Source of the DNA: a virus
Taxonomy: Duplodnaviria > Heunggongvirae > Uroviricota > Caudoviricetes
Virus record (IMG/VR): IMGVR_UViG_2872147552_000001
DNA: 64,000 nt
Direction: 5' to 3' (one strand)
Position numbers and translations under genes: made by a program. Below the pieces are notes generated by a model that saw only the letters and a program-made list of their open reading frames with translations, did not search any database and had not been told where the DNA came from. Below are positions 6,379 to 63,031 of this stretch, piece by piece (the stretch's first letter is position 1; each line of letters starts with the position of its first letter).

Positions 6379-7128
6379 TTAATTAGATAGGGGATCAATA
6401 AACCGCCGTGCTTCTTCCAGTTCTTCTGGAAAGTGGGCGGAAATAAGGCGCTCTGGAACGATTTCCATTAGCCAGATAGCGGAGAAAATTGCGCGTATGC
6501 GCTTGCTGCGGGGGATGGTGCGTAAACGCTCCAGAATCCACTCAAAATAGCTTTCCTGAATCGGGTTGAACTGCATGTCCCCCATATGCTTAAAGCTAAC
6601 CAGAGAGTCATCCAGACGGGTTGTTGCGCGTCTGGCTAATTTCTCTTCGAATATCTCAATCAGTTCTTGCTGCCATAAATGCTGTGGGCGCGGCAGCTTG
6701 TCCCACAGCCGTCGTGCAGCTGCGGAAAGAACGGTGGAGATAAAGTAGTCGTATGAGCAGCAATAGCGATCCGCAAACTGGCGCGCTTTCCATAGCGACG
6801 TTTTATTGGCAGTCGACAACTCCTGATAAGGCAGGCGTTTTAACCCGGTGGTGAACGGAGCTGTTTCAAAGTGTTCGCGACCGTGCGTCAGCATGATATT
6901 TGAGTACTGACGTTTGTATGCCTCCGTAAAAAGACAGGTGGCCATGAGAGGATGCATGTCGCGGTAATCAAACCACTTCGTCTCGAAGAGTTCAGCCTCG
7001 TCTTTACAGCGCGACAAACCAATGTTTTCAGCGACCCACTTGTCCATAACAGCGGTATTCCACTCTGTCATGAAGTCGTACTGGTCGTTGTCGATGGTAT
7101 CGAAAAAGATCTGGCTCATGTGGCTCAC
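6379..7128 (-). CDS. hypothetical protein, first gene of replication operon
   Basis: 249-aa ORF with AGGTGAG RBS; operator motif immediately upstream. Confidence 0.55.
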   Translation of the reverse strand: MSHMSQIFFDTIDNDQYDFMTEWNTAVMDKWVAENIGLSRCKDEAELFETKWFDYRDMHPLMATCLFTEAYKRQYSNIMLTHGREHFETAPFTTGLKRLPYQELSTANKTSLWKARQFADRYCCSYDYFISTVLSAAARRLWDKLPRPQHLWQQELIEIFEEKLARRATTRLDDSLVSFKHMGDMQFNPIQESYFEWILERLRTIPRSKRIRAIFSAIWLMEIVPERLISAHFPEELEEARRFIDPLSN

Positions 7129-7233
7129 CTGGTAGGTAGTTACTTACTTATCACGATGAGCGGATGATAGCGACTGGTGGCAGTTTTTGGAAGTGGAAAC
7201 GGAAGGGAGTTGTTCTGGTGGTGTCTTTTAAAA

Positions 7234-7291
7234 GACCTGCTTCCGTATATATATTTAATAAGTTACTTATTATTTATATACAGAAACAGGT
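7234..7291. repeat. 58-bp AT-rich imperfect palindrome, copy 1 (second copy at 40272-40329)
   Basis: gacctgcttccgtatatatatttaataagttacttattatttatatacagaaacaggtc; about 95% identical to copy 2. Confidence 0.7.
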
Positions 7292-7491
7292 CAAGAAACC
7301 AACCCAACCTAGTTTTTAGTCTCATGGTATGCAACCTTAAGATCTACTTTAAAACAGCTGCACGCCAGACGGTTGCAACATTGTTAAGTGTAACAAATTA
7401 TTGTAGATTACTCAGGCACAGAATAGCGTCTACAACTTAAGAAACGTCCAGAAATAAACAATGTTCCAATCACGTAGAAAGGGAATTAAGA

Positions 7492-8169
7492 ATGAAGGCG
7501 AATAAGTCAGCGGCACTTTTAGTTTTATTATTAGCCGGTTGCGCGCAACAAAGTAACCCACAACAAAATGCCACTGTAAAACCAATCCTAACCCAAGAAA
7601 TATTGCCTTCCTCTAACGTAGAGTCAAAGGCGAAAATGGGTGACCTTGTCGTTTATAACACGTTTGTGTCCACGTTAAAAACCGACATGGTCACTCTTGG
7701 TAACGCTTCTGGTTCGATGTCTGAGATTAAAGCGGGCAACTACTGCCACGTTGGTGGTGGGGTCTACCGGAACTTTGAAGACTCAAAAGCTGTGGGCCTG
7801 AAGGCCATTACAGGGCAGGTAGTGAGCCACACTGATAACGTCAAGTATGACAAGGTCAAAAACACTATATCTCCTCCAAACACCACGACGTTCGACGCCT
7901 CCGAAATATCCATAAAATTCGCACAAAATGTCCCCTGCCATGTAGAGAAAAAGATTGTTCAGTCTATTTCTTATAATGGTAAAAGCGGCGAAGAACTTAA
8001 ATTTATTTATTCCGAAAGCTACCCATATTTAGATGAAACTAAGACTGAGTTTTCAGTGCCTCTTTCCGATGCAAAAACCAAAGTCGAATATAAAAACCTG
8101 GCATTCAGGGTTATTGAAATGGAGGGTACTACAATCCGCTACTATGTATTACCATCTGGCAATAAATAA
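7492..8169 (+). CDS. lipoprotein (signal peptide + lipobox LAGC)
   Basis: N-terminus MKANKSAALLVLLLAGCAQQ; GGAA RBS; sits between replication and partition modules. Confidence 0.7.
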   Translation: MKANKSAALLVLLLAGCAQQSNPQQNATVKPILTQEILPSSNVESKAKMGDLVVYNTFVSTLKTDMVTLGNASGSMSEIKAGNYCHVGGGVYRNFEDSKAVGLKAITGQVVSHTDNVKYDKVKNTISPPNTTTFDASEISIKFAQNVPCHVEKKIVQSISYNGKSGEELKFIYSESYPYLDETKTEFSVPLSDAKTKVEYKNLAFRVIEMEGTTIRYYVLPSGNK

Positions 8170-8184
8170 ACTGCTTTAAAATAT

Positions 8185-8202
8185 AGGCGCCATCTGGCGC
8201 CT
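8185..8202. terminator. bidirectional hairpin terminator
   Basis: aggcgccatctggcgcct stem-loop between convergent lipoprotein and parG-like genes, T-rich flank. Confidence 0.6.
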
Positions 8203-8207
8203 TATTC

Positions 8208-8567
8208 TTAACTCTTCTTCATTAACTCGCGTTTAATTTCATCGGTACGCATCGTGACATCGGCAGCAGTGATCGCCTCGTTCAGCTTCACGATGTCCTC
8301 GATTTCCTGCGGTGTCTTCTCCGCAAGATGGAAAATAGCAGCACGAATCACATCAGAGCGGGTGAATTTCTCAAAGCGAGGGATGAACTTCATCATCTCC
8401 AGCAGTTCGAAGTATTCGTCTTCCAGTGACATTGTGCGGCTTTTAATTTTCTCTTTGCCACGAGTCGGGCGTCCCTGTGGTCTGACTGGTTGGCGCAAAG
8501 GAGTTGTGTTCTTAGCCGGTGCATCAGGCTCTTTGCGCTTTGCTAGGTCACCCATTTTCATGGACAT
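8208..8567 (-). CDS. small partition protein (ParG/RHH-like centromere-binding partner of ParA)
   Basis: 119-aa basic N-terminus, immediately downstream of and overlapping parA stop. Confidence 0.55.
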   Translation of the reverse strand: MSMKMGDLAKRKEPDAPAKNTTPLRQPVRPQGRPTRGKEKIKSRTMSLEDEYFELLEMMKFIPRFEKFTRSDVIRAAIFHLAEKTPQEIEDIVKLNEAITAADVTMRTDEIKRELMKKS

Positions 8568-9235
8568 TATTCTTTTTCCTCCAGACTCAACAGATAATCT
8601 ACAAATTCTTCAAACTCGGCTTCCGCCTTTTTGTCGCGCTCGCTACCGGTCATTTCAAAGATAGAACGACCAGACTCTTCCGCATCATCATAGACGTTGC
8701 GGTTATATAGATTGACTGGCGCAGACTCGATGCCAAACGTCTCAACAATCTCTTTAGCCGCCAGAATGCGAGACACTTGTGATGGCAAAGCCGGACACTG
8801 GTTCATGACCGCGCGGACCTTCACTTTATCGTTTACATTACGAACATTGTCGATAATAGGATCGATATCACGCAGAGATTTCAAATCACGACGCTTAGGA
8901 CGAAGCGGGATAATGATAACGTCGGCCATCAGCATCGCTTGTCGCTGAATTTCGGAGTCAAAGCCACCAGCATCTACCACGACAAACTCAGCTCTACCCT
9001 GAAGCGATTTTAGGTGCTTAATGATGTCATCCTGAACGTATGCAAAAGGAATCAGCTCAAGGTCTTCGTTCTGTCGACGGTCTTCACACCAGCTCGTTGT
9101 CGTGCGCTGAATATCTATATCGGTAATATAAACCTTCTTCTTCTTTTTGACTTTCAGGCAAACGGCAATTTGCTGGGCAACGGTGGATTTGCCAGGCCCG
9201 CCCTTTGTGCCGCCAACCACAAAGATCTTGGTCAT
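8567..9235 (-). CDS. parA: ParA-family partition ATPase (small type Ib)
   Basis: Deviant Walker A GGTKGGPGKST, Walker B VVVDAGG; 222 aa. Confidence 0.85.
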   Translation of the reverse strand: MTKIFVVGGTKGGPGKSTVAQQIAVCLKVKKKKKVYITDIDIQRTTTSWCEDRRQNEDLELIPFAYVQDDIIKHLKSLQGRAEFVVVDAGGFDSEIQRQAMLMADVIIIPLRPKRRDLKSLRDIDPIIDNVRNVNDKVKVRAVMNQCPALPSQVSRILAAKEIVETFGIESAPVNLYNRNVYDDAEESGRSIFEMTGSERDKKAEAEFEEFVDYLLSLEEKE

Positions 9236-9553
9236 TGGAGAGTTCCCTTTGCGTATATAATTATCGTCTGAAACAACTTGTTTTCTTATATGTGATATAG
9301 CCTAAATGCCTACGGCTGCGGTGTAAAGGTTAAATGGTAGGTTGTGATTAACAATTGGCAATCATAGCTTGTATTTGTCTGTTGAAAAAAGTAACAATGA
9401 CCTCTATATTACAAGTACGGTGTTATGCCGTACACAATTTGATAATGCACACGTAATGGGCTATAGCCTTTTAAAGTAATTTTTGAGTCGAAAACTCAGT
9501 TTGAACAGAGGAGATTGATGGCCTTCCTACATCACGGCCATCAGGAGGAATAC

Positions 9554-9823
9554 ATGTCAGCACTAAAAAAGCAGCGCATCGATTTGAGATTAACCGATGA
9601 CGATAAAAGCATCATCGAGGAAGCTGCCGCAATGTCTAACCAGAGCATTACTCAGTTTATGGTTAGCAGTGCATCTGAACGTGCCGTGAAAGTTATAGAG
9701 CAACACCGTAGACTAGTTCTAAGTGAAGAGTCCTGGAATCTGGTTATGGATGCTATAAGCAATCCTCCGGCACCGAACGACAAGCTGAAACGAGCTGCCA
9801 ATCGTCTGAAAAGCATGGAGTAG
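9554..9823 (+). CDS. antitoxin of GNAT toxin (DUF1778, AtaR/TacA-like)
   Basis: Start placed at MSALKKQRIDLRLTDDDK with AGGAGG RBS (track ORF starts at TTG 9515); 8 nt before toxin gene. Confidence 0.75.
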   Translation: MSALKKQRIDLRLTDDDKSIIEEAAAMSNQSITQFMVSSASERAVKVIEQHRRLVLSEESWNLVMDAISNPPAPNDKLKRAANRLKSME

Positions 9824-9830
9824 TTTACTC

Positions 9831-10352
9831 GTGAGCAATACGACGATCGAGATTTTCTCTGGAGAGAACGATTATGATCTAAACGGTTTTGATTGCGGCG
9901 AAGAGTCACTAAACGCATTTTTGACCAACCACTTAAAAAGACAGCATGAAGGAAAAATTCTTCGCGCTTATGTGCTTTGCACTAAAGAAGAAATACCAAA
10001 GGTATTAGGTTATTACACTTTGTCAGGCAGCTGCTTTGAGAAAGAAACCTTACCTTCAAAGAGTCAGCAAAAGAAAGTGCCTTATCGGAATGTCCCAAGT
10101 ATCACTTTAGGCAGACTGGCTTTGGACAAATCTCTTCAAGGTCAGGGGCTTGGCTCAATGCTTGTAACTCACGCAATGCGTGTTGTGTACAATGCATCTC
10201 TTGCGGTAGGCATTCATGGGCTTTTCGTTGAGGCGTTGAACGATAAAGCCAGGGCGTTTTATAAAAGTTTGGGCTTTATCCAGCTGGTTGGTAACAACGA
10301 TCGTTCTTTGTTCTATCCAACAAAATCTATCGAAAAATTGTTCGAAGAATAA
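9831..10352 (+). CDS. GNAT-family acetyltransferase toxin (AtaT/ItaT/TacT-like)
   Basis: YDLNGFDCGEESLNAFL..., GNAT motif A LQGQGLGSML and motif B AFYKSLGF; 173 aa. Confidence 0.85.
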   Translation: MSNTTIEIFSGENDYDLNGFDCGEESLNAFLTNHLKRQHEGKILRAYVLCTKEEIPKVLGYYTLSGSCFEKETLPSKSQQKKVPYRNVPSITLGRLALDKSLQGQGLGSMLVTHAMRVVYNASLAVGIHGLFVEALNDKARAFYKSLGFIQLVGNNDRSLFYPTKSIEKLFEE

Positions 10353-10384
10353 TGTGTCCCCCTCATTTGAGGGGAACTTCGACA

Positions 10385-10600
10385 TCACCAACCGCAAACT
10401 CTCTCTCCCATCGTATTGTGAAAAAGGATTTGGCGTTCGGTTTCTTCGGTCATTACATCGTCATTGCTGATATAAATAGGTTCAGCGCCATCGCAGAACA
10501 ACACGCTAGTGGTTTGTGGCTTAATGACGCATCCACTTATCATGCAGCTCACGATGAATGGCAGAAGCATCTTTCTGACGTATTTCACTGTTCGTCTCAT
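10385..10600 (-). CDS. o-spanin (Rz1-like lipoprotein) overlapping i-spanin
   Basis: Lipobox MLLPFIVSCMISGC; out-of-frame overlap with the Rz-like gene end. Confidence 0.55.
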   Translation of the reverse strand: MRRTVKYVRKMLLPFIVSCMISGCVIKPQTTSVLFCDGAEPIYISNDDVMTEETERQILFHNTMGERVCGW

Positions 10601-40271: not shown

Positions 40272-40329
40272 GCCTGCTTCCGTATATATTTAATAAGTTA
40301 CTTATTATTTATATATACAGAAGCAGGTC
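40272..40329. repeat. 58-bp AT-rich imperfect palindrome, copy 2, flanked by GGTCTGGG / CCCAGACC inverted repeat
   Basis: gcctgcttccgtatatatttaataagttacttattatttatatatacagaagcaggtc; upstream of terminase operon; two GAAAACAA.TTGTTTTC-type sites lie at about 40190-40240. Confidence 0.7.
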
Positions 40330-41778: not shown

Positions 41779-42409
41779 ATTCCACCTTCACGCGTTCTTT
41801 GTAGTGCTTGGTGATCTGCATATCCGGGCGCAGCGCGTTCTTCAGGTCTTCGTGAGTCGTCGCCACCATTACCGTCGCACCAACCTTTCGAGCGGCACGC
41901 TGGAGGTTAGATGCCACAACCTGAGCGGTTACACGGTCTAGAACAGCCCCGAACTCGTCAGCAGCCCACACTTTAGCGCCTGACTCAATCAGTTTGGCAA
42001 TCTTGAGACGATATTTCTGGCCGTCTGACATTTCAGAAGGCTTGCGAACAAACAGATATGCATCGTTCAGACCAGCCATAGATAACAACCCAAGCGCATC
42101 ACTGGTCGTTTTGCCCAACTGATCGATGACGTTAACCTCATTATCGAAGGTAAAATCATCGATGGAGGCTACAGACAGCCCTTCATCCTTCATCTGTCGT
42201 TGCAACTCGCGCAGCACAACGGATTTGCCGGATCCGGATTGGCCGGTGATGTACACCACATCGCCCTGCTTCACTTCCAGCTCCAGATTGTCGTAAAGCG
42301 TCCACTCTTTTTCGTCCAGACCAAGCCCGAACGACTCAGCGATTTCCAACGTGCGCGTGGTTTTATTTACGCGTGTCTGAAACGATACGTTGATGATGTA
42401 TTTGCTCAT
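41771..42409 (-). CDS. compact ABC-type ATPase (nucleotide-binding domain only)
   Basis: Walker A GQSGSGKS, ABC signature SDGQKYRL, Walker B VWAADEF, H-loop TTHE; 212 aa, no membrane domain. Confidence 0.75.
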   Translation of the reverse strand: MSKYIINVSFQTRVNKTTRTLEIAESFGLGLDEKEWTLYDNLELEVKQGDVVYITGQSGSGKSVVLRELQRQMKDEGLSVASIDDFTFDNEVNVIDQLGKTTSDALGLLSMAGLNDAYLFVRKPSEMSDGQKYRLKIAKLIESGAKVWAADEFGAVLDRVTAQVVASNLQRAARKVGATVMVATTHEDLKNALRPDMQITKHYKERVKVEYA

Positions 42410-43074
42410 GCAGCCATCTCCCCGGAAGAGATCTTCTCCGCATATGCCACAAATGCGTCTACCCCGCTTTCTCCTGTCATTTCTTCCATGTGGGCAAGCA
42501 AATCACCAACAACAATGGCAGAGCCAGCAGGGAGCGTTTTAAAGCCCAATACGTCGACAACACGTACTTCTTCCGCTGCAACTTCACGACTGATCTCGGT
42601 GTGTTCATCCTTCTGTCGTTTAGTTTCTTCGCCAAGATCGATAACTAGCGAGTCGGTGTCCATTTCTTCTGTCATACTGCCAACGAGAACATTCAACTCA
42701 CGCTCTTCAAAGCCGAAAACCTCGATATCGTCCAGAACAAGCGACTCAAGCTCTTTCTGTAGCTTAATTGCATCGTAATCAATGCTGGCTAGTCGGTTAT
42801 CTTCAAGGCGCTTCGCACGAACCTCGTCATCACTCAGATCATCGCGAACAATAACCGGCACGCGCTCAAGTCCAGCAAAAATTGCAGCCTCACGGCGGCC
42901 GTGGCCAGTAATAATTACGTCGTTCTTATCGACCGTAATTGGCTGGTCAAATCCTCGCTTTTTAATGGCTGCGGCCAGATCTCGGATCTGCTGTTCATCA
43001 TGCTTTTTGGCATTCATCTCATAGGGAATAAGATCTGCCGGGTCGCGATATACGATTTCAAACTTTTTGGTCAT
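42406..43074 (-). CDS. ParB/Srx-like nuclease-domain protein 2
   Basis: LIPYEMNAKKH...ITVDKNDVIITGHGRREAAIFAGLERVPVIV ParB N-domain signature; start placed at Met12 overlapping upstream stop (track to 43107). Confidence 0.65.
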   Translation of the reverse strand: MTKKFEIVYRDPADLIPYEMNAKKHDEQQIRDLAAAIKKRGFDQPITVDKNDVIITGHGRREAAIFAGLERVPVIVRDDLSDDEVRAKRLEDNRLASIDYDAIKLQKELESLVLDDIEVFGFEERELNVLVGSMTEEMDTDSLVIDLGEETKRQKDEHTEISREVAAEEVRVVDVLGFKTLPAGSAIVVGDLLAHMEEMTGESGVDAFVAYAEKISSGEMAA

Positions 43075-43772
43075 TACATACGCTCCTTGTAGTAGTCGAC
43101 CAGCCACACCAGAGCCTCACCAGCGTTCTCCATTTCATTACCGGTGTTAATAGCCTGCTCTTTGATGATGTTTTTTATGGTTTCTGCAACACGATCTGAC
43201 GCATCGAAAGTTACTTTGAAGCGCATGGTCTGATGTTCCGCCCCCACACGTTCGGTTTTCTCTCGTTTGTCGGTATCGACAGGCTCATCACTACCACGAG
43301 ACAACGCCTCCAGTGCTTCAAGGTCGATTGCCGCCTCTTTTGCTAAAACCATCGAGATTTCGTCGTCATACGGGGCGATTTCAGACAGTTGATAGTCAAG
43401 TTCTGACTGAATTTCTTCAATGAAGCGTTGCAATGCGATTTGGTCGTCTTCACCGTATCGCTCGTTGTCCACCAGTGACATCTGTTTAGCTACGACATCG
43501 CTAATTTTGCCCACAGAAAGCACCGGAACCGTTGAAATTCCTTGCTCAATAGCAGCACGCCAGCGATGTTCGCCGCCGAGGATTTCAAAAAATCCATCTT
43601 CAAGTTCACGAGCCAAAATTGGCTTAAAAAAGCCCAATTTTTCGATAGAACCTTTCAGTTTTTCAAAATTCTGCGCACCAACCGAATTGGTGTTCCAGGT
43701 ATTCGGGCGAAGGTTGGCAACATCAACCTGCAAAATCGTGATTTTTACATCCATTTTATTGCTACAATCCAC
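43074..43772 (-). CDS. ParB/Srx-like nuclease-domain protein 1
   Basis: LRPNTWNTN...ILGGEHRWRAAIEQGISTVPVLSV ParB N-domain signature; 232 aa; first gene after the divergent promoter. Confidence 0.65.
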   Translation of the reverse strand: MDCSNKMDVKITILQVDVANLRPNTWNTNSVGAQNFEKLKGSIEKLGFFKPILARELEDGFFEILGGEHRWRAAIEQGISTVPVLSVGKISDVVAKQMSLVDNERYGEDDQIALQRFIEEIQSELDYQLSEIAPYDDEISMVLAKEAAIDLEALEALSRGSDEPVDTDKREKTERVGAEHQTMRFKVTFDASDRVAETIKNIIKEQAINTGNEMENAGEALVWLVDYYKERM

Positions 43773-54972: not shown

Positions 54973-57006
54973 TTACTTAACCTGGTGGCCAGGTTTAGCA
55001 CCAGCATCCGGGCTTAACAGGAAGATATCTTTCCCGCCGGGGCCAGCAGCCATCACCATGCCTTCAGAGATACCGAAGCGCATTTTACGTGGTGCCAGGT
55101 TAGCCACCATAATGGTGTGACGACCAATCAGTGCCTGTGGATCTGGATAAGCGGAACGGATGCCTGAGAAGACATTACGCTTTTCACCACCGAGATCCAG
55201 CGTCAGGCGAAGCAGTTTGTCAGAACCTTCTACAAACTCTGCGTTTTCAATCAGCGCCACGCGCAGGTCAACTTTGGCGAAGTCGTCAAAGGTGATAGTT
55301 TCCTGAATCGGGTCGTCAGCCAGTGGGCCAGTTACCGGTGCGGCTGTGGCTTTCACTTCTTCTTTGGATGCTTCCACCAGTGCTTCAACCTGCTTCATAT
55401 CGATGCGGTTATACAGTGCCTTGAACGGATTTACTTTATGGCCCAGCAGCGGTTGCTGGATACCATCCCAGGTCAGTTCTGTATTCAGGAATGCTTCTGC
55501 ACGTTCAGTCAGTTTCGGCAGTACCGGCTTCAGGTACGTCATCAGCACGCGGAACAGGTTAATGCCCATAGAGCAAATCGCCTGCAGATCGGCATCGCGA
55601 CCTTCCTGCTTCGCCACCACCCACGGAGCCTGTTCATCGACATAGCGGTTAGCCAGGTCAGCCAATGCCATGATTTCACGGATAGCTTTACCAAATTCGC
55701 GGCTTTCCCATGCTTCGCCAATCACTTCAGCGGCATCAGTAAAGGTTTTGTACAGTTGCGGGTCAGCCAGTTCGCTTGCCAGCACGCCGTCAAAACGCTT
55801 GTTTATAAAGCCTGCATTACGGGAGGCCAGGTTAACCACTTTGTTCACGATATCGGCATTCACGCGCTGAACGAAATCCTCCAGGTTGAGATCGATATCA
55901 TCAATGCGCGAAGAGAGTTTCGCAGTGTAGTAGTAACGCAGGCTGTCGGCGTCAAAATGATTCAGCCAGGTGCTGGCTTTAATAAAGGTGCCGCGAGACT
56001 TGGACATCTTCGCGCCGTTCACCGTCACATAGCCGTGAACAAACAGGTTGGTCGGCTTGCGGAAGTTGCTGCCTTCCAGCATGGCAGGCCAGAACAGGCT
56101 GTGGAAGTAAACAATATCTTTACCGATGAAGTGGTACAGCTCGGCGGTGGAGTCTTTCTTCCAGTATTCATCGAAGCTGGTGGTATCGCCGCGCTTGTCG
56201 CACAGATTCTTGAAGGAACCCATGTAGCCAATCGGCGCGTCCAGCCAGACGTAGAAATATTTGCCCGGCGCGTCCGGAATTTCAAAACCGAAGTAAGGCG
56301 CATCGCGGGAGATATCCCACTGTTGCAGGCCGGATTCAAACCATTCCTGCATTTTGTTCGCCACCTGCTCCTGCAACGCGCCGCTGCGGGTCCATGCCTG
56401 CAACATTTCGCTGAAAGAAGGCAGATCAAAGAAGAAGTGTTCGGAATCACGCATTACCGGGGTAGCGCCAGAAACCACCGATTTCGGCTCGATCAATTCA
56501 GTCGGGCTATATGTTGCGCCGCAGACTTCACAGTTATCGCCGTATTGATCTGGCGCTTTACATTTCGGGCAGGTGCCTTTTACAAAACGATCCGGCAGGA
56601 ACATGCCTTTTTCCGGGTCGTACAACTGAGAGATAGTGCGGTTTTTAATAAAACCGTTCTCTTTCAGGCGAGTATAGATAAGCTCAGACAACTGACGGTT
56701 CTCTTCGCTGTGCGTCGAGTGATAGTTGTCATAGCTGATGTTAAAGCCTGCGAAATCAGTCTGGTGTTCCTGACTCATTTCGCCAATCATCTGCTCCGGT
56801 GTGATACCAAGCTGCTGCGCTTTCAGCATGATCGGCGTACCGTGGGCATCGTCGGCACAGATGAAATTAACCTCGTGGCCGCGCATTCGCTGGTAACGAA
56901 CCCAGACATCAGCCTGGATGTGCTCCAGCATATGGCCGAGGTGGATTGAGCCGTTAGCGTACGGCAGCGCGCACGTCACCAGAATTTTCTTCGCGACTTG
57001 GGTCAT
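54973..57006 (-). CDS. metG: methionine--tRNA ligase
   Basis: 677-aa product starting [37 protein letters not shown] and KMSKS motifs, Zn knuckle CPKC...CEVC; recalled from memory as near-identical to E. coli MetG; track ORF has a 43-codon spurious N-terminal extension. Confidence 0.97.
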
Positions 57007-57163
57007 AGTAGGCATTACTTCTTTGTAGTGAAAAGGGGCTTGATAGTAACAAAATGGCCTTATGTCTGCCATGTGATAACAGCATTTCTCATAAATGATT
57101 AAATGTCGTAGCTGGAGTACACTACAAGGCGACAATTGCGCAAATTAAAATAAAGGAGACGGG

Positions 57164-58264
57164 ATGAGCGAGTCCAAATCGCCGGATGCCCTGAGAGCAA
57201 TGGTAGCCGGTACGCTGGCTAATTTTCAGCACCCAACCCTGAAACACAACCTGACTACGCTTAAAGCGTTACACCATGTTGCGTTGATGGATGACACACT
57301 GCATGTCGAACTAATCATGCCTTTCGTGTGGAATAAGCCTTTTGAAGACCTGAAAGAGCAATGTAGTGGTGATCTGCTCCGTATCACTGGCGCAAAGGCT
57401 ATTGACTGGAAGCTGTCGTACAACATTGCCACGCTTAAGCGCGTCAAAAACCAACCAGGCATTAATGGCGTTAAGAACATTATCGCCGTCAGCTCAGGCA
57501 AGGGCGGCGTGGGTAAATCCTCCACGGCGGTAAACCTGGCACTGGCGTTGGCTGCTGAAGGTGCGAAAGTTGGTATTTTGGATGCCGATATCTATGGTCC
57601 ATCAATTCCAACCATGCTGGGTGCGGAAAACCAACGTCCAACCTCACCTGACGGTACTCACATGGCACCTATCATGTCTCATGGCCTGGCAACCAACTCT
57701 ATTGGTTATCTGGTCACCGACGACAATGCAATGGTGTGGCGTGGACCGATGGCCAGCAAGGCGCTGATGCAGATGTTGCAGGAAACTCTATGGCCTGATC
57801 TGGACTATCTCGTTCTCGATATGCCGCCGGGCACTGGTGATATTCAGTTGACGCTGGCGCAGAACATTCCTGTAACTGGTGCGGTTGTGGTAACTACGCC
57901 GCAAGACATCGCGCTGATCGATGCGAAGAAAGGCATTGTGATGTTCGAAAAAGTCGAAGTGCCGGTACTGGGTATCGTCGAAAACATGAGTGTGCATATT
58001 TGCAGTAACTGCGGTCATCACGAGCCAATTTTTGGCACCGGTGGCGCACAGAAACTGGCCGAGAAATACAACACGCAGTTGTTAGGCCAAATGCCACTTC
58101 ATATCTCTCTTCGTGAAGATCTGGATAACGGAACACCAACCGTTATTAGTCGTCCAGATAGCGAATTTACGGCTATTTATCGTGACCTCGCAGATCGCGT
58201 TGCCGCCCAAATGTATTGGCAAGGTGAAGTAATACCTGGCGAAATCGCATTCCGCGCAGTGTGA
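57164..58264 (+). CDS. apbC: Fe-S cluster carrier ATPase Mrp/ApbC
   Basis: P-loop SGKGGVGKSST, CxxC motif ICSNCGHH; 366 aa; divergent from metG as in the E. coli chromosome. Confidence 0.95.
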   Translation: MSESKSPDALRAMVAGTLANFQHPTLKHNLTTLKALHHVALMDDTLHVELIMPFVWNKPFEDLKEQCSGDLLRITGAKAIDWKLSYNIATLKRVKNQPGINGVKNIIAVSSGKGGVGKSSTAVNLALALAAEGAKVGILDADIYGPSIPTMLGAENQRPTSPDGTHMAPIMSHGLATNSIGYLVTDDNAMVWRGPMASKALMQMLQETLWPDLDYLVLDMPPGTGDIQLTLAQNIPVTGAVVVTTPQDIALIDAKKGIVMFEKVEVPVLGIVENMSVHICSNCGHHEPIFGTGGAQKLAEKYNTQLLGQMPLHISLREDLDNGTPTVISRPDSEFTAIYRDLADRVAAQMYWQGEVIPGEIAFRAV

Positions 58265-58301: not shown

Positions 58302-58691
58302 CTACATCACGGGACAATCATCAAACTCGCCACTTCTTGCGTCGTTGATAATGTGAGTGATCACACCAAACACGGCATTGCTGCCCGTGCATCCATCGTC
58401 ATCCTTTGGCAATGCTTCCTTCTTACCGGTTCTTAAATCCTCCAGATGCTGACGTGGGTACTTCCGGTATCTTTTTACGCGATATTCCCCATCCAGAGCG
58501 CATACAAGCAGAGAACCATCAACCGGGGTAAGCGAGGAATCGACCACCAGCAATGCACCCTGTAATATTCCCTCACGATGATGACTATCAGCTGCCCTCA
58601 TGAAGTAGGTCGCTGAAGGATGTCTAATTATCTGCTGATCAAGAGAAATACGGCTCTCAGCATAATCCGCCGCAGGAGAAGGGAAGCCCAT
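58302..58691 (-). CDS. UmuD'-like S24 peptidase (lacks N-terminal arm)
   Basis: Begins MGFPSPAADYAE (equivalent to the UmuD cleavage-site region), retains Ser (DSH) and Lys (RVKRYRK) of the catalytic dyad; 129 aa. Confidence 0.75.
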   Translation of the reverse strand: MGFPSPAADYAESRISLDQQIIRHPSATYFMRAADSHHREGILQGALLVVDSSLTPVDGSLLVCALDGEYRVKRYRKYPRQHLEDLRTGKKEALPKDDDGCTGSNAVFGVITHIINDARSGEFDDCPVM

Positions 58692-61851: not shown

Positions 61852-62405
61852 TACGATGCCTCTAACTTGTCTAACTCTTTCAGCCCTTCACGTACCGCGT
61901 TCACAATGCGTTCCAGATACTGGTATTTCGGGTTTGGTACCGTTGGCCAGTCGGCATACCACGGATCATCACCAAAGAGATTCAGTAGTTTGTTACCGAC
62001 GCCGAAACAGCAGCAGCTTTCTTTTACGTCATCGGCGTTTTCCGCCTCGTCCCACATTTCGCGAGCCAGTACGGCGTCTATTTCTCTCTCTCTTCGTAAC
62101 TTTATGATTTCTGACTTCACGAAAAGCAGATTTGCATCGTTGTCATCGTCGACCGTGCTTCGCAGTTGAGGGTCGAAATAGCCGATTAGATACTCGTTGC
62201 TGACCCGCTTAATGAACGTCTGCACATCATCACCGCCCATAGCAAACCAAGCCGCAGTCCACGCTTTTCCGTAGCAGGTGATGGTGATTCTTCCCTTACC
62301 AGGTTCGTAGTTTTCAATCATCACTCGAACCGGATCGAGGCGTTCCAGATCCGTCAGCACAAAGGAAAGAACATCTATTTTTTCGATCTTCATGCAGCCT
62401 CCCAC
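61851..62405 (-). CDS. hypothetical protein
   Basis: 184-aa ORF coupled in operon. Confidence 0.45.
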   Translation of the reverse strand: MGGCMKIEKIDVLSFVLTDLERLDPVRVMIENYEPGKGRITITCYGKAWTAAWFAMGGDDVQTFIKRVSNEYLIGYFDPQLRSTVDDDNDANLLFVKSEIIKLRREREIDAVLAREMWDEAENADDVKESCCCFGVGNKLLNLFGDDPWYADWPTVPNPKYQYLERIVNAVREGLKELDKLEAS

Positions 62406-63031
62406 GCGCTCCAGATCAGCGATTTGTGTTTTTCATAACGTTTGATGTGTACCGGTTTCAGAAGCGCAATACCTTCAGTGACTTTCGCCATTGCGCTTAA
62501 TAACAACGGGTGTTCTATACCTATCCTCTCCATGTACTCGACAACATCAGCGTTGGCACCAATCTCCTTCCCGTTAAAAAGTACGTCCAGCATCAGCTCT
62601 TTCTCTGCAAGGTAGATAGCTGAAAACTCAGGATCGCGACTCACGATAGAAGAGGTATTGTCGAGCAGGTCAGCCAGCTTGATCATGCGCGTCTGCATGT
62701 CGAGATTTTGCTCCAGCTCCCGGACATTGATGATGAAACGCTGTATTCGATTGCCGTCTTCTGGCCTTGCAATGTTGGTCAGAGCCTGAACCATTTCAGC
62801 TACGCGCTCACCGAAGTGATCACGAACCATCTCTATGGTTACATGGGTGTCTTCGACCACATCATGCAGAAGCGCCGCGATTTGCATCTCCACGGTTCCG
62901 TCATGCAATGCAACAATCTCTCGGACAGCAACCGGGTGGTTGATGTAGTCTTCGCCGGTATATTTTCTTTTCTGACCAACGCCACCATGAGCGCCAGCGG
63001 CGAACATATGAGCTTCGGAAATACTAGACAT
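62390..63031 (-). CDS. HD-domain phosphohydrolase
   Basis: H...HD signature (IAALLHDVVEDT) and downstream His/Asp; 213 aa. Confidence 0.65.
   Translation of the reverse strand: MSSISEAHMFAAGAHGGVGQKRKYTGEDYINHPVAVREIVALHDGTVEMQIAALLHDVVEDTHVTIEMVRDHFGERVAEMVQALTNIARPEDGNRIQRFIINVRELEQNLDMQTRMIKLADLLDNTSSIVSRDPEFSAIYLAEKELMLDVLFNGKEIGANADVVEYMERIGIEHPLLLSAMAKVTEGIALLKPVHIKRYEKHKSLIWSAWEAA

Follow-up and report, generated by a model that had tools for sequence, protein, structure and literature searches.

The region between positions 8208 and 10352 of a 64,000-nucleotide stretch of phage DNA (Caudoviricetes; IMG/VR record IMGVR_UViG_2872147552_000001; the whole stretch is referred to below as the window) very probably contains two independent stability modules. 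One is a core type Ib partition (par) operon and the other is an accessory toxin–antitoxin (TA) cassette of the AtaRT/KacAT type. Judged by nucleotide identity and gene order, the element to which they belong is an Escherichia coli phage-plasmid of the SSU5/pHCM2 type. An initial annotation of this DNA had proposed a phage-plasmid lifestyle on the basis of a ParA/ParG-like partition pair and a neighbouring GNAT toxin with a DUF1778 antitoxin.

The identity is 95–98%, and 95–97.5% when taken over 2.5 kb around the region, to the isolated phages Cyrano and CMS-2020a and, at the same level, to hundreds of non-mobilizable plasmids of ~105–115 kb; NZ_CP061531.1 is an example of the circular IncFIB records of ~108 kb found among them. 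Phage PhiR41_1 (95–98% identity) and Salmonella phage SSU5 match in the par half only. The region was found in 263 of the 5,426 complete E. coli genomes (~5%), where 265 out of 265 places were on plasmids and none on chromosomes; par and TA were both present in 150 of these 263 genomes and par only in the remainder. The backbone gene order (tail fibre, holin, endolysin, Rz/Rz1, a variable slot, parA, its partner gene, another variable slot, a gene for a 249-amino-acid (aa) protein, DnaB-like helicase, primase and ligase) is shared with Cyrano, SSU5 and PhiR41_1, and is thus the synteny of the SSU5 group. Phage-plasmids of this type are established and well described (PMC7969092; pECOH89, PMC3999498). 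In Cyrano, the closest complete relative, repA maps outside the part covered by the window.

In GenBank the Cyrano genome is a linear record, and its first and last positions (1 and 108,379) adjoin in the window, which reads through them without a break at 40289/40290; the small terminase gene begins ~130 bp further downstream. Such continuity fits a circular or circularly permuted genome. An extrachromosomal state is supported for the relatives by their plasmid-only distribution, and for the window itself by the continuity over the Cyrano ends alone. The proposed phage-plasmid lifestyle is supported by the identity to phages and circular plasmids, by the distribution and by the bridged ends. 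Signs of the opposite, an integrated element with degenerate par genes, were looked for and did not appear, because the distribution is plasmid-only, with no chromosomal place in the complete E. coli genomes, and the window bridges the record ends.

Gene layout and the toxin–antitoxin pair

Four open reading frames (ORFs) were found at exactly the limits reported in the initial annotation. Their layout agrees with the divergent arrangement described there, the par pair reading away from the GNAT toxin/DUF1778 antitoxin pair, and the two operons are 318 bp apart (9236–9553). Known RNA families were searched for in 7000–10600 and none was found, the only scores being chance ones for microRNA-like hairpins. 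The features of the region are listed below, with the kind of evidence for each in brackets.

8185–8202, no strand assigned: GC-rich hairpin AGGCGCC-ATCT-GGCGCCT, a predicted bidirectional terminator between the partner gene and a cargo lipoprotein gene (two-strand terminator scan; inverted repeat)
8208–8567, minus strand: partner of ParA, 119 aa, a putative centromere-binding adaptor (ORF; start overlaps the parA stop)
8567–9235, minus strand: small type Ib (ParF-like) ParA, 222 aa (Pfam, PHROG 164, solved relatives)
9236–9342, minus strand: putative par promoter and regulatory region (conservation in relatives)
9343–10387, plus strand: accessory TA cassette comprising promoter, operator, antitoxin, toxin and hairpin, between parA and Rz/Rz1 (homology breakpoints)
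9382–9410, plus strand: predicted sigma-70 promoter of the TA operon, TTGAAA-N17-TATATT (promoter scan, 10/12 matches)
9415–9433, no strand assigned: predicted TA operator GTACGG-N7-CCGTAC (match to the KacAT operator)
9554–9823 (ORF 9515–9823), plus strand: ribbon-helix-helix (RHH) antitoxin TacA/AtaR/KacA (DUF1778), 89 aa (Pfam; KacA and AtaR matches)
9831–10352, plus strand: AtaT/KacT-clade GNAT toxin of 173 aa that starts with GTG (AtaT and KacT matches)
10356–10377, no strand assigned: GC-rich hairpin separating the toxin stop from the convergent Rz1 gene (terminator scan, called for the minus, or lysis, strand only)

The antitoxin matched the Pfam family TacA1/DUF1778 with 91.4 bits against a cutoff of 21, and aligned with KacA (5zgn_A, E=2.5e-41, 79% identity) and AtaR (6ajm_C, E=5e-40). 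The ATG at 9554 was taken as its start; it is preceded by AGGAGG and aligns to KacA residue 1. An upstream in-frame ATG at 9518, used in the Cyrano annotation, was rejected because a 1-nt indel breaks the frame in the close relative pWEM25 p1. It is known that R8 and R12 of KacA are required for operator binding and that a D10A variant binds much more weakly (PMC6698736); all three of these DNA-contact residues are kept in the antitoxin. The toxin gene follows directly, its GTG start lying 7 nt past the antitoxin stop.

The toxin scored above threshold with Pfam Acetyltransf_1, Acetyltransf_7 and Acetyltransf_10. It aligned with AtaT (6GTS/6AJM) at E ~1e-78 (1.5e-78), with 70% identity over 171 residues, and with KacT (5ZGN and 5XUN) at ~1e-76 (5zgn_C, E=6e-76). 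Residue Y144 is the counterpart of KacT Y145, the residue mutated in the published Y145F variant, and the acetyl-CoA loop QGQGLG is also kept. These alignments put the pair clearly within the AtaRT/KacAT clade of GNAT–RHH systems, every feature that defines the clade at the level of sequence being present. The resemblance to the tRNA-acetylating AtaT family, suggested at the outset, is thus confirmed by the identities to AtaT and KacA and by the retained catalytic tyrosine. Public records already label the genes of the region as ParA, 'KacT acetyltransferase-type toxin' and antitoxin.

By analogy with these homologues, the GNAT toxin would acetylate an aminoacyl-tRNA and so block translation, and the RHH antitoxin would wrap around the toxin and inhibit it. 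A complex of two toxin and four antitoxin molecules would repress its own promoter via GTACGG-N7-CCGTAC near the predicted start site. In cells that lose the plasmid, the toxin would be released and growth arrested post-segregationally. Toxicity, the tRNA target and addiction are thus predicted properties of the pair.

AtaT is reported to act on Met-tRNAfMet, in a study cited as reference 11 in PMC9431474. The window also encodes a full-length methionyl-tRNA synthetase at 54973–57135 on the minus strand (Pfam tRNA-synt_1g, 4.6e-166, plus a tRNA_bind domain) and, divergent from it, an Mrp/ApbC-like P-loop NTPase at 57164–58264 on the plus strand. Both genes are also present in Cyrano and in PhiR41_1, the latter being free of the TA cassette. 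A link between the synthetase and the reported target of the AtaT-like toxin is probably coincidental.

The TA operator and the variable slots beside par

The initial annotation had placed a palindrome in the divergent intergenic region at about 9440–9460 and had offered it as either the TA operator or a centromere. The palindrome, gtacggtgttatgccgtac, is real and occurs as a single copy unique in the window; its actual position is 9415–9433, ~25 bp further left. A perfect 6-bp inverted repeat was found in 43% of shuffles of the intergenic region, therefore the palindrome requires outside support, and its significance derives from the match to the KacAT operator. The DNA in the KacAT crystal structure 5ZGN is a 27-bp operator, AAATGTACGGTTATTAACCGTACATGA, which consists of GTACGG, a 7-bp AT-rich spacer and CCGTAC (PMC6698736). 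The site in the window, GTACGG-TGTTATG-CCGTAC, is identical to it in both arms and in spacing. The arms are invariant among the relatives and the spacer is variable.

The site begins 5 bp past the -10 hexamer of the promoter TTGAAA-N17-TATATT, which is conserved in Cyrano and in pWEM25 p1. The kacAT operator has been reported to span the transcription start (PMC6698736). Because the arms and spacing match those of KacAT and the site immediately follows a good promoter, we identify the palindrome at 9415–9433, from its sequence and position, as the TA operator and not a centromere. Of the two roles offered for it, the first is thus upheld and the second is not.

Homology to SSU5, PhiR41_1 and the Klebsiella relatives ends at ~9336–9345 (at 9342 for SSU5 and PhiR41_1) and returns at 10384–10403. 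The TA cassette is absent from SSU5 and PhiR41_1, which keep the same par operon and have two unrelated hypothetical genes each in this slot; pJN2-26 has one such gene and some Klebsiella-type elements have none. Among plasmid records in PLSDB, 720 match some part of the 2.5-kb par–TA query and 144, nearly all from Escherichia, contain the cassette. By this distribution the cassette is optional accessory cargo. The initial annotation had counted the TA pair among the functions that a low-copy replicon needs. Its presence on a phage-plasmid is confirmed, but a core status is contradicted by the 144 versus 720 records.

The other side of the par operon has a variable slot as well. In the window it holds a gene (7492–8169, plus strand) for a 225-aa predicted lipoprotein, which has a signal peptide with the lipobox LLAGC and belongs to PHROG 1353, where no function is assigned; Cyrano and SSU5 carry DUF2971 and other genes in that place. 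In the distant relative L014 (1650–3059 and 5591–6559) the slots flanking par hold an ApeA/HEPN-like gene (PADLOC PDC-S58, 5e-17) and an Abi_2 gene, and in another distant relative, L009 (1998–3182), one such slot holds an unannotated gene for 394 aa. Such gene contents suggest that the flanks of par are a hotspot for cargo of an accessory or defensive kind.

Two other readings of the cassette and its palindrome have to be weighed against addiction and autoregulation. That the palindrome GTACGG-N7-CCGTAC is the partition centromere would accord with its location between the two operons, yet it lies within the optional cassette, SSU5 and PhiR41_1 keep par without that cassette, and a single copy with the exact arms and spacing of the KacAT operator is present; we regard this reading as scarcely credible. 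A somewhat better case, although still an unlikely one, can be made for a cassette that serves mainly in defence or competition, by abortive infection or exclusion of rival plasmids, and not as an addiction module. The slot it occupies is variable, being filled by unrelated genes in relatives; one distant relative has there the ApeA/HEPN-like gene, a match to a candidate defence family of PADLOC, with the Abi_2 gene across the par operon; and only ~20% of the PLSDB records matching the region have the cassette, which is therefore not needed for maintenance. However, no PADLOC model was matched by either TA protein, the homologues AtaRT and KacAT are described as growth-arrest or tolerance modules, and the role for which TA systems originally became known was the stabilisation of plasmids (PMC6698736, PMC9431474 for both points). 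The place beside par suits a stability function equally well. In view of the candidate defence gene in the slot of the distant relative, defence or competition is kept as a minor rival to addiction.

The par operon, its adaptor and the upstream DNA

The parA product matched Pfam MipZ (52 bits, cutoff 20.7), AAA_31 (52 bits, cutoff 27) and CbiA (32 bits, cutoff 25.4), as well as PHROG 164, 'ParA-like partition protein' (E=5e-51). The Walker A motif is of the deviant kind (KGGPGKS, from residue 11), and there is no N-terminal extension. The best solved relatives are ParF of TP228 (4dzz) and ParA (5u1g), both with E=1.2e-10. On these matches ParA is a divergent small partition ATPase of type Ib (ParF-like). 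The adaptor gene is located immediately 3′ of parA in the operon, with a stop/start overlap in TAATG; this overlap, together with the Walker A and Pfam matches, confirms the small ParA with a downstream partner gene that had been read from the ORFs. ParAs of type Ib typically work with small adaptors that are not ParB proteins and whose genes follow parA at once. By homology, the ATP form of ParA would bind the nucleoid, and ParA and the adaptor would place plasmid copies in both daughter cells, so that partition activity is predicted for the operon.

The partner itself falls into PHROG 5111, with no function assigned, and is labelled hypothetical in RefSeq. Its family is narrow: 25 clusters were found by a word search, and a full HMMER profile search among 1.84 billion proteins gave 18 representative clusters, all belonging to this family. 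In all nine fetched loci the homologues, down to 25–32% identity, come right after a small ParA gene, and the surrounding phage synteny is the same. An N-terminal peptide of the MGDLAKR type is kept without change, and a variable linker comes after it. The most conserved blocks are residues 41–51 (IKSRTMSxEDE) and 68–78 (FTRSDVIRAAI), which fits the strand of an RHH fold followed by the N-terminus of its helix 2. The RHH signals were below threshold: RHH_1 was found with E=0.0053 for the member P0027 alone, and aCcr1, which we take to be a ribbon-helix-helix family, with E ~2e-4 in 14 of 18 members. These matches and the conservation pattern coincide at residues 41–82.

AlphaFold2 monomer models built from alignments of 13 and 18 sequences had mean confidence scores (pLDDT) of 65 and 70. 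They contain a disordered stretch at residues 1–25 (pLDDT <50), helices at 48–59, 70–82, 86–97 and 101–117, and no strand. The predicted layout is a disordered basic N-terminal tail, a probable RHH core (strand at ~41–47, helices 48–59 and 70–82) and two further C-terminal helices. The adaptor would dimerise through this RHH-like core and bind a cis-acting plasmid site, and its conserved basic tail would stimulate ParA; the fold and the binding site are both put forward here as expectations.

Non-coding DNA within the conserved par module is confined to the segment 9236–9342. Its identity to SSU5 is 93.5%, compared with 84% for the parA coding DNA, and to the Klebsiella relatives 82–86% (77% for parA). 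The part from 9270 to 9342 is nearly invariant, and 9284–9342 is invariant in the group formed by SSU5, E. coli and the Klebsiella elements of 80% identity. In groups whose partner is 32–50% identical, only a TATAAG -10-like hexamer and the adjacent palindrome are retained upstream of parA. This palindrome, AAACAAcTTGTTT, is located at 9271–9283, just downstream of the hexamer, and when k-mers of the upstream block were compared with the rest of the window it alone recurred. The block at 9284–9342, which is specific to the module, is the best candidate for the centromere or operator of par on grounds of conservation.

Another site, at 7234–7292, is a 59-bp AT-rich imperfect palindrome, GACCTGCTTCCGTATATATATTTAATAAGT-T-ACTTATTATTTATATACAGAAACAGGTC, that folds much better than shuffled sequence (z=-5.35). 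In every group it is found at the same position, upstream of the 249-aa protein gene and the helicase/primase module. An origin, a replication or regulatory site and a centromere are possible roles for it; its linkage to the helicase module rather than to par, seen in all groups, counts against it as the centromere of par.

A number of results weigh against the interpretation of these two genes as a ParF/ParG-like partition operon. With NCBIfam ParA_partition, ParA scored 115.7 bits, below the equivalog cutoff of 180, and is therefore a divergent member and not an equivalog. For the partner, no match was obtained in Pfam (13 family members, E≤10) or in the PDB by sequence or profile search, and a fold search with the predicted structures gave none either. 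Comparison of the family profile with ParG (the sequence of PDB 1P94) by hhalign gave a probability of 0.1%, i.e. no homology was detected, and the same method gave no significant match to the RHH antitoxin of the window. Searches for direct, inverted and tandem repeats in 8100–9600 found no centromere-type array at the par operon, and the 9284–9342 block is not shared between the relatives L007 and L009, whose adaptors differ little. Finally, the element encodes two other proteins with a ParB N-terminal domain (ParB_N), labelled 'ParB' in Cyrano, and these might in principle partner ParA. Overall, we consider it probable that the partner works like ParG, as a small dimeric adaptor, and the profile comparisons place it outside the ParG family. 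The 'ParG-like' and 'RHH-like' description given initially is accordingly retained as a functional analogy but not as homology to ParG, the RHH assignment being based on matches below threshold.

The palindrome in the par promoter belongs to a set that extends over the element. The pattern AAACA-N3-TGTTT (often AGAAAACAAnTTGTTT) with no more than one mismatch was found at 16 sites in the window against 2.7 expected; a longer pattern of the same palindrome gave 21 sites against 2.5 expected. Thirteen of the 16 sites are either intergenic or right at the 5′ terminus of a predicted ORF. The 13-bp sites listed are as follows.

6355, 9271, 40196, 40221, 49568, 50053, 50803, 51706, 52191, 54825, 54876, 58814 and 63087, no strand assigned: sites of the 13-bp palindrome

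Most of these are 7–55 bp upstream of minus-strand gene starts, often right after a GATAAT-like -10 hexamer. In Cyrano there are ~18 such sites, 18–80 bp upstream of gene starts, and the genes preceded by them include those for the small terminase, parA, helicase, cobT and the ribonucleotide reductase beta subunit. pMT1, from Yersinia pestis, has this backbone too but relies on a P1-type ParAB, and neither the small ParA nor the partner had a homologue in it (tblastn E>0.7). Nevertheless it has 8 palindrome sites against 2.9 expected, at homologous promoters, for example two upstream of the small terminase gene. The palindrome appears to be the operator of a backbone regulon that spans the element, and the protein that binds it is not a Par protein. 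Since the par promoter carries a copy, the par operon would be wired into this general regulon of the phage-plasmid.

Two further genes of the window are each preceded by a hairpin and a copy of the regulon palindrome. One (58302–58691, minus strand) encodes a 129-aa protein with Peptidase_S24 only and no helix-turn-helix domain, possibly UmuD-like, and the other (62390–63031, minus strand) a 213-aa HD-domain protein.

Three other roles for the partner were weighed against that of a ParG-like adaptor. It is improbable, in our estimation, that the true partners of ParA are the ParB_N proteins encoded at 42406–43772, or that ParA has another role and the partner is a transcription factor only. 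The 'ParB' labels and the lack of a significant family assignment for the partner could be quoted for this. On the other hand, a small ParA with its Walker A motif at residue 11 and no N-terminal extension is of type Ib, and the parA and partner genes overlap and co-occur in nine out of nine loci. Moreover, pMT1 keeps the ParB_N pair together with its P1-type ParAB in the absence of the small ParA and the partner; therefore the ParB_N pair does not travel with this ParA and, by that comparison, seems unrelated to it. Smaller still is the chance that the partner binds the dispersed AAACA-N3-TGTTT sites, acting as centromere binder and global repressor in the manner of KorB or omega, with the sites as dispersed centromeres. 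The palindrome is indeed the only par-promoter element conserved across groups, the putative DNA-reading strand IKSRTMS is nearly invariant, and adaptors of type Ib usually regulate their own expression from the par promoter. But L014, L015 and L018 have no perfect palindrome upstream of parA while the strand residues are kept, L014 having just a site with one mismatch ~120 bp upstream of parA, and pMT1 retains its sites in the absence of these par genes. The last observation means that the binder of the palindrome is not the partner, and this candidate was rejected. As to the GenBank label 'RelE/ParE putative toxin' on the Cyrano gene CYRAN_29 (L001 5994–6353, corresponding to window 8208–8567), the protein matched none of the ParE and RelE models of Pfam and NCBIfam even at permissive thresholds, translation of the gene is coupled to that of parA, and an antitoxin gene is missing beside it. 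No model supports the label, so it looks like a mis-annotation, and we give a toxin function for the partner next to no weight.

The two ParB_N genes, 42406–43107 and 43074–43772 (both on the minus strand), are situated between the gene for a UvsW-like helicase and genes for ABC-type ATPases, a few kb from the terminase genes.

Returning to the ParG-like adaptor, we offer a combined proposal, though only tentatively, as we consider it somewhat less likely than not. The par operon would be switched together with replication, nucleotide-metabolism and packaging operons by a backbone regulator acting through the 13-bp palindrome, which is placed downstream of the -10 hexamer at no fewer than 13 promoters of the window; at the same time the partner would found a new family of RHH-like centromere-binding adaptors, with a centromere that has no usual repeat array. 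No study of the SSU5 par centromere, the partner protein or the palindrome regulon was found in the literature searched.

Comparison with known systems

The region is an ordinary one, an uncharacterised representative of known kinds whose genes are already annotated in databases. The conventional answer applies: a type Ib partition operon accompanied, in a minority of elements, by a well-understood GNAT–RHH TA cassette. Phage-plasmids of the SSU5 type are often met with in E. coli, Salmonella and Klebsiella, and some relatives carry extended-spectrum beta-lactamase (ESBL) genes (PMC3999498). There is therefore practical value in knowing what stabilises them. A modest residual interest attaches to the fold and DNA target of the adaptor, the location of the centromere and the identity of the palindrome regulator.

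Compared with KacAT of Klebsiella pneumoniae (5XUN, 5ZGN) and AtaRT of E. coli O157:H7 (6AJM, 6GTS), the TA pair has the same antitoxin-first operon of a GNAT–RHH type II system. It also shares the catalytic tyrosine, the acetyl-CoA loop, R8, D10 and R12, and the operator arms with a 7-bp spacer at the predicted transcription start. It differs in being cargo of a phage-plasmid and not chromosomal, in the sequence of the operator spacer and in a lysine in place of KacA R77. In K. pneumoniae, toxins of clade 1 (KacT1/AtaT-like) are reported to be mostly chromosomal (PMC9431474).

The par operon is closest in kind to ParF–ParG–parH of TP228. Both have a small ParA with a deviant Walker motif, ParF being the best solved relative, and a small adaptor gene directly downstream; in the adaptor a basic N-terminal tail, predicted to be disordered, leads into what is probably an RHH core, and regulatory DNA lies upstream of parA. 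In contrast to ParG (76 aa), the adaptor described here has 119 aa, two extra C-terminal helices and no detectable similarity to ParG, and no array of tetramer-box repeats is visible. An operator-like palindrome that the par promoter has in common with many promoters of the element recalls delta-omega of pSM19035 and IncC–KorB of RK2. However, here the par operon would be a target of the regulon and not its master: the shared palindrome persists in pMT1 without these par genes, therefore the global regulator is not the Par adaptor. The classical phage-plasmids P1 (ParAB–parS with Phd/Doc) and N15 (SopAB) are also extrachromosomal prophages, kept by active partition together with a type II TA addiction module, and the region mirrors P1 in its overall arrangement. 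Those prophages use a type Ia ParA with a helix-turn-helix partner of the ParB/SopB family and defined downstream or dispersed centromeres, and the TA family is Phd/Doc, whereas in the phage-plasmid described here it is GNAT–RHH and, by its distribution, optional cargo.

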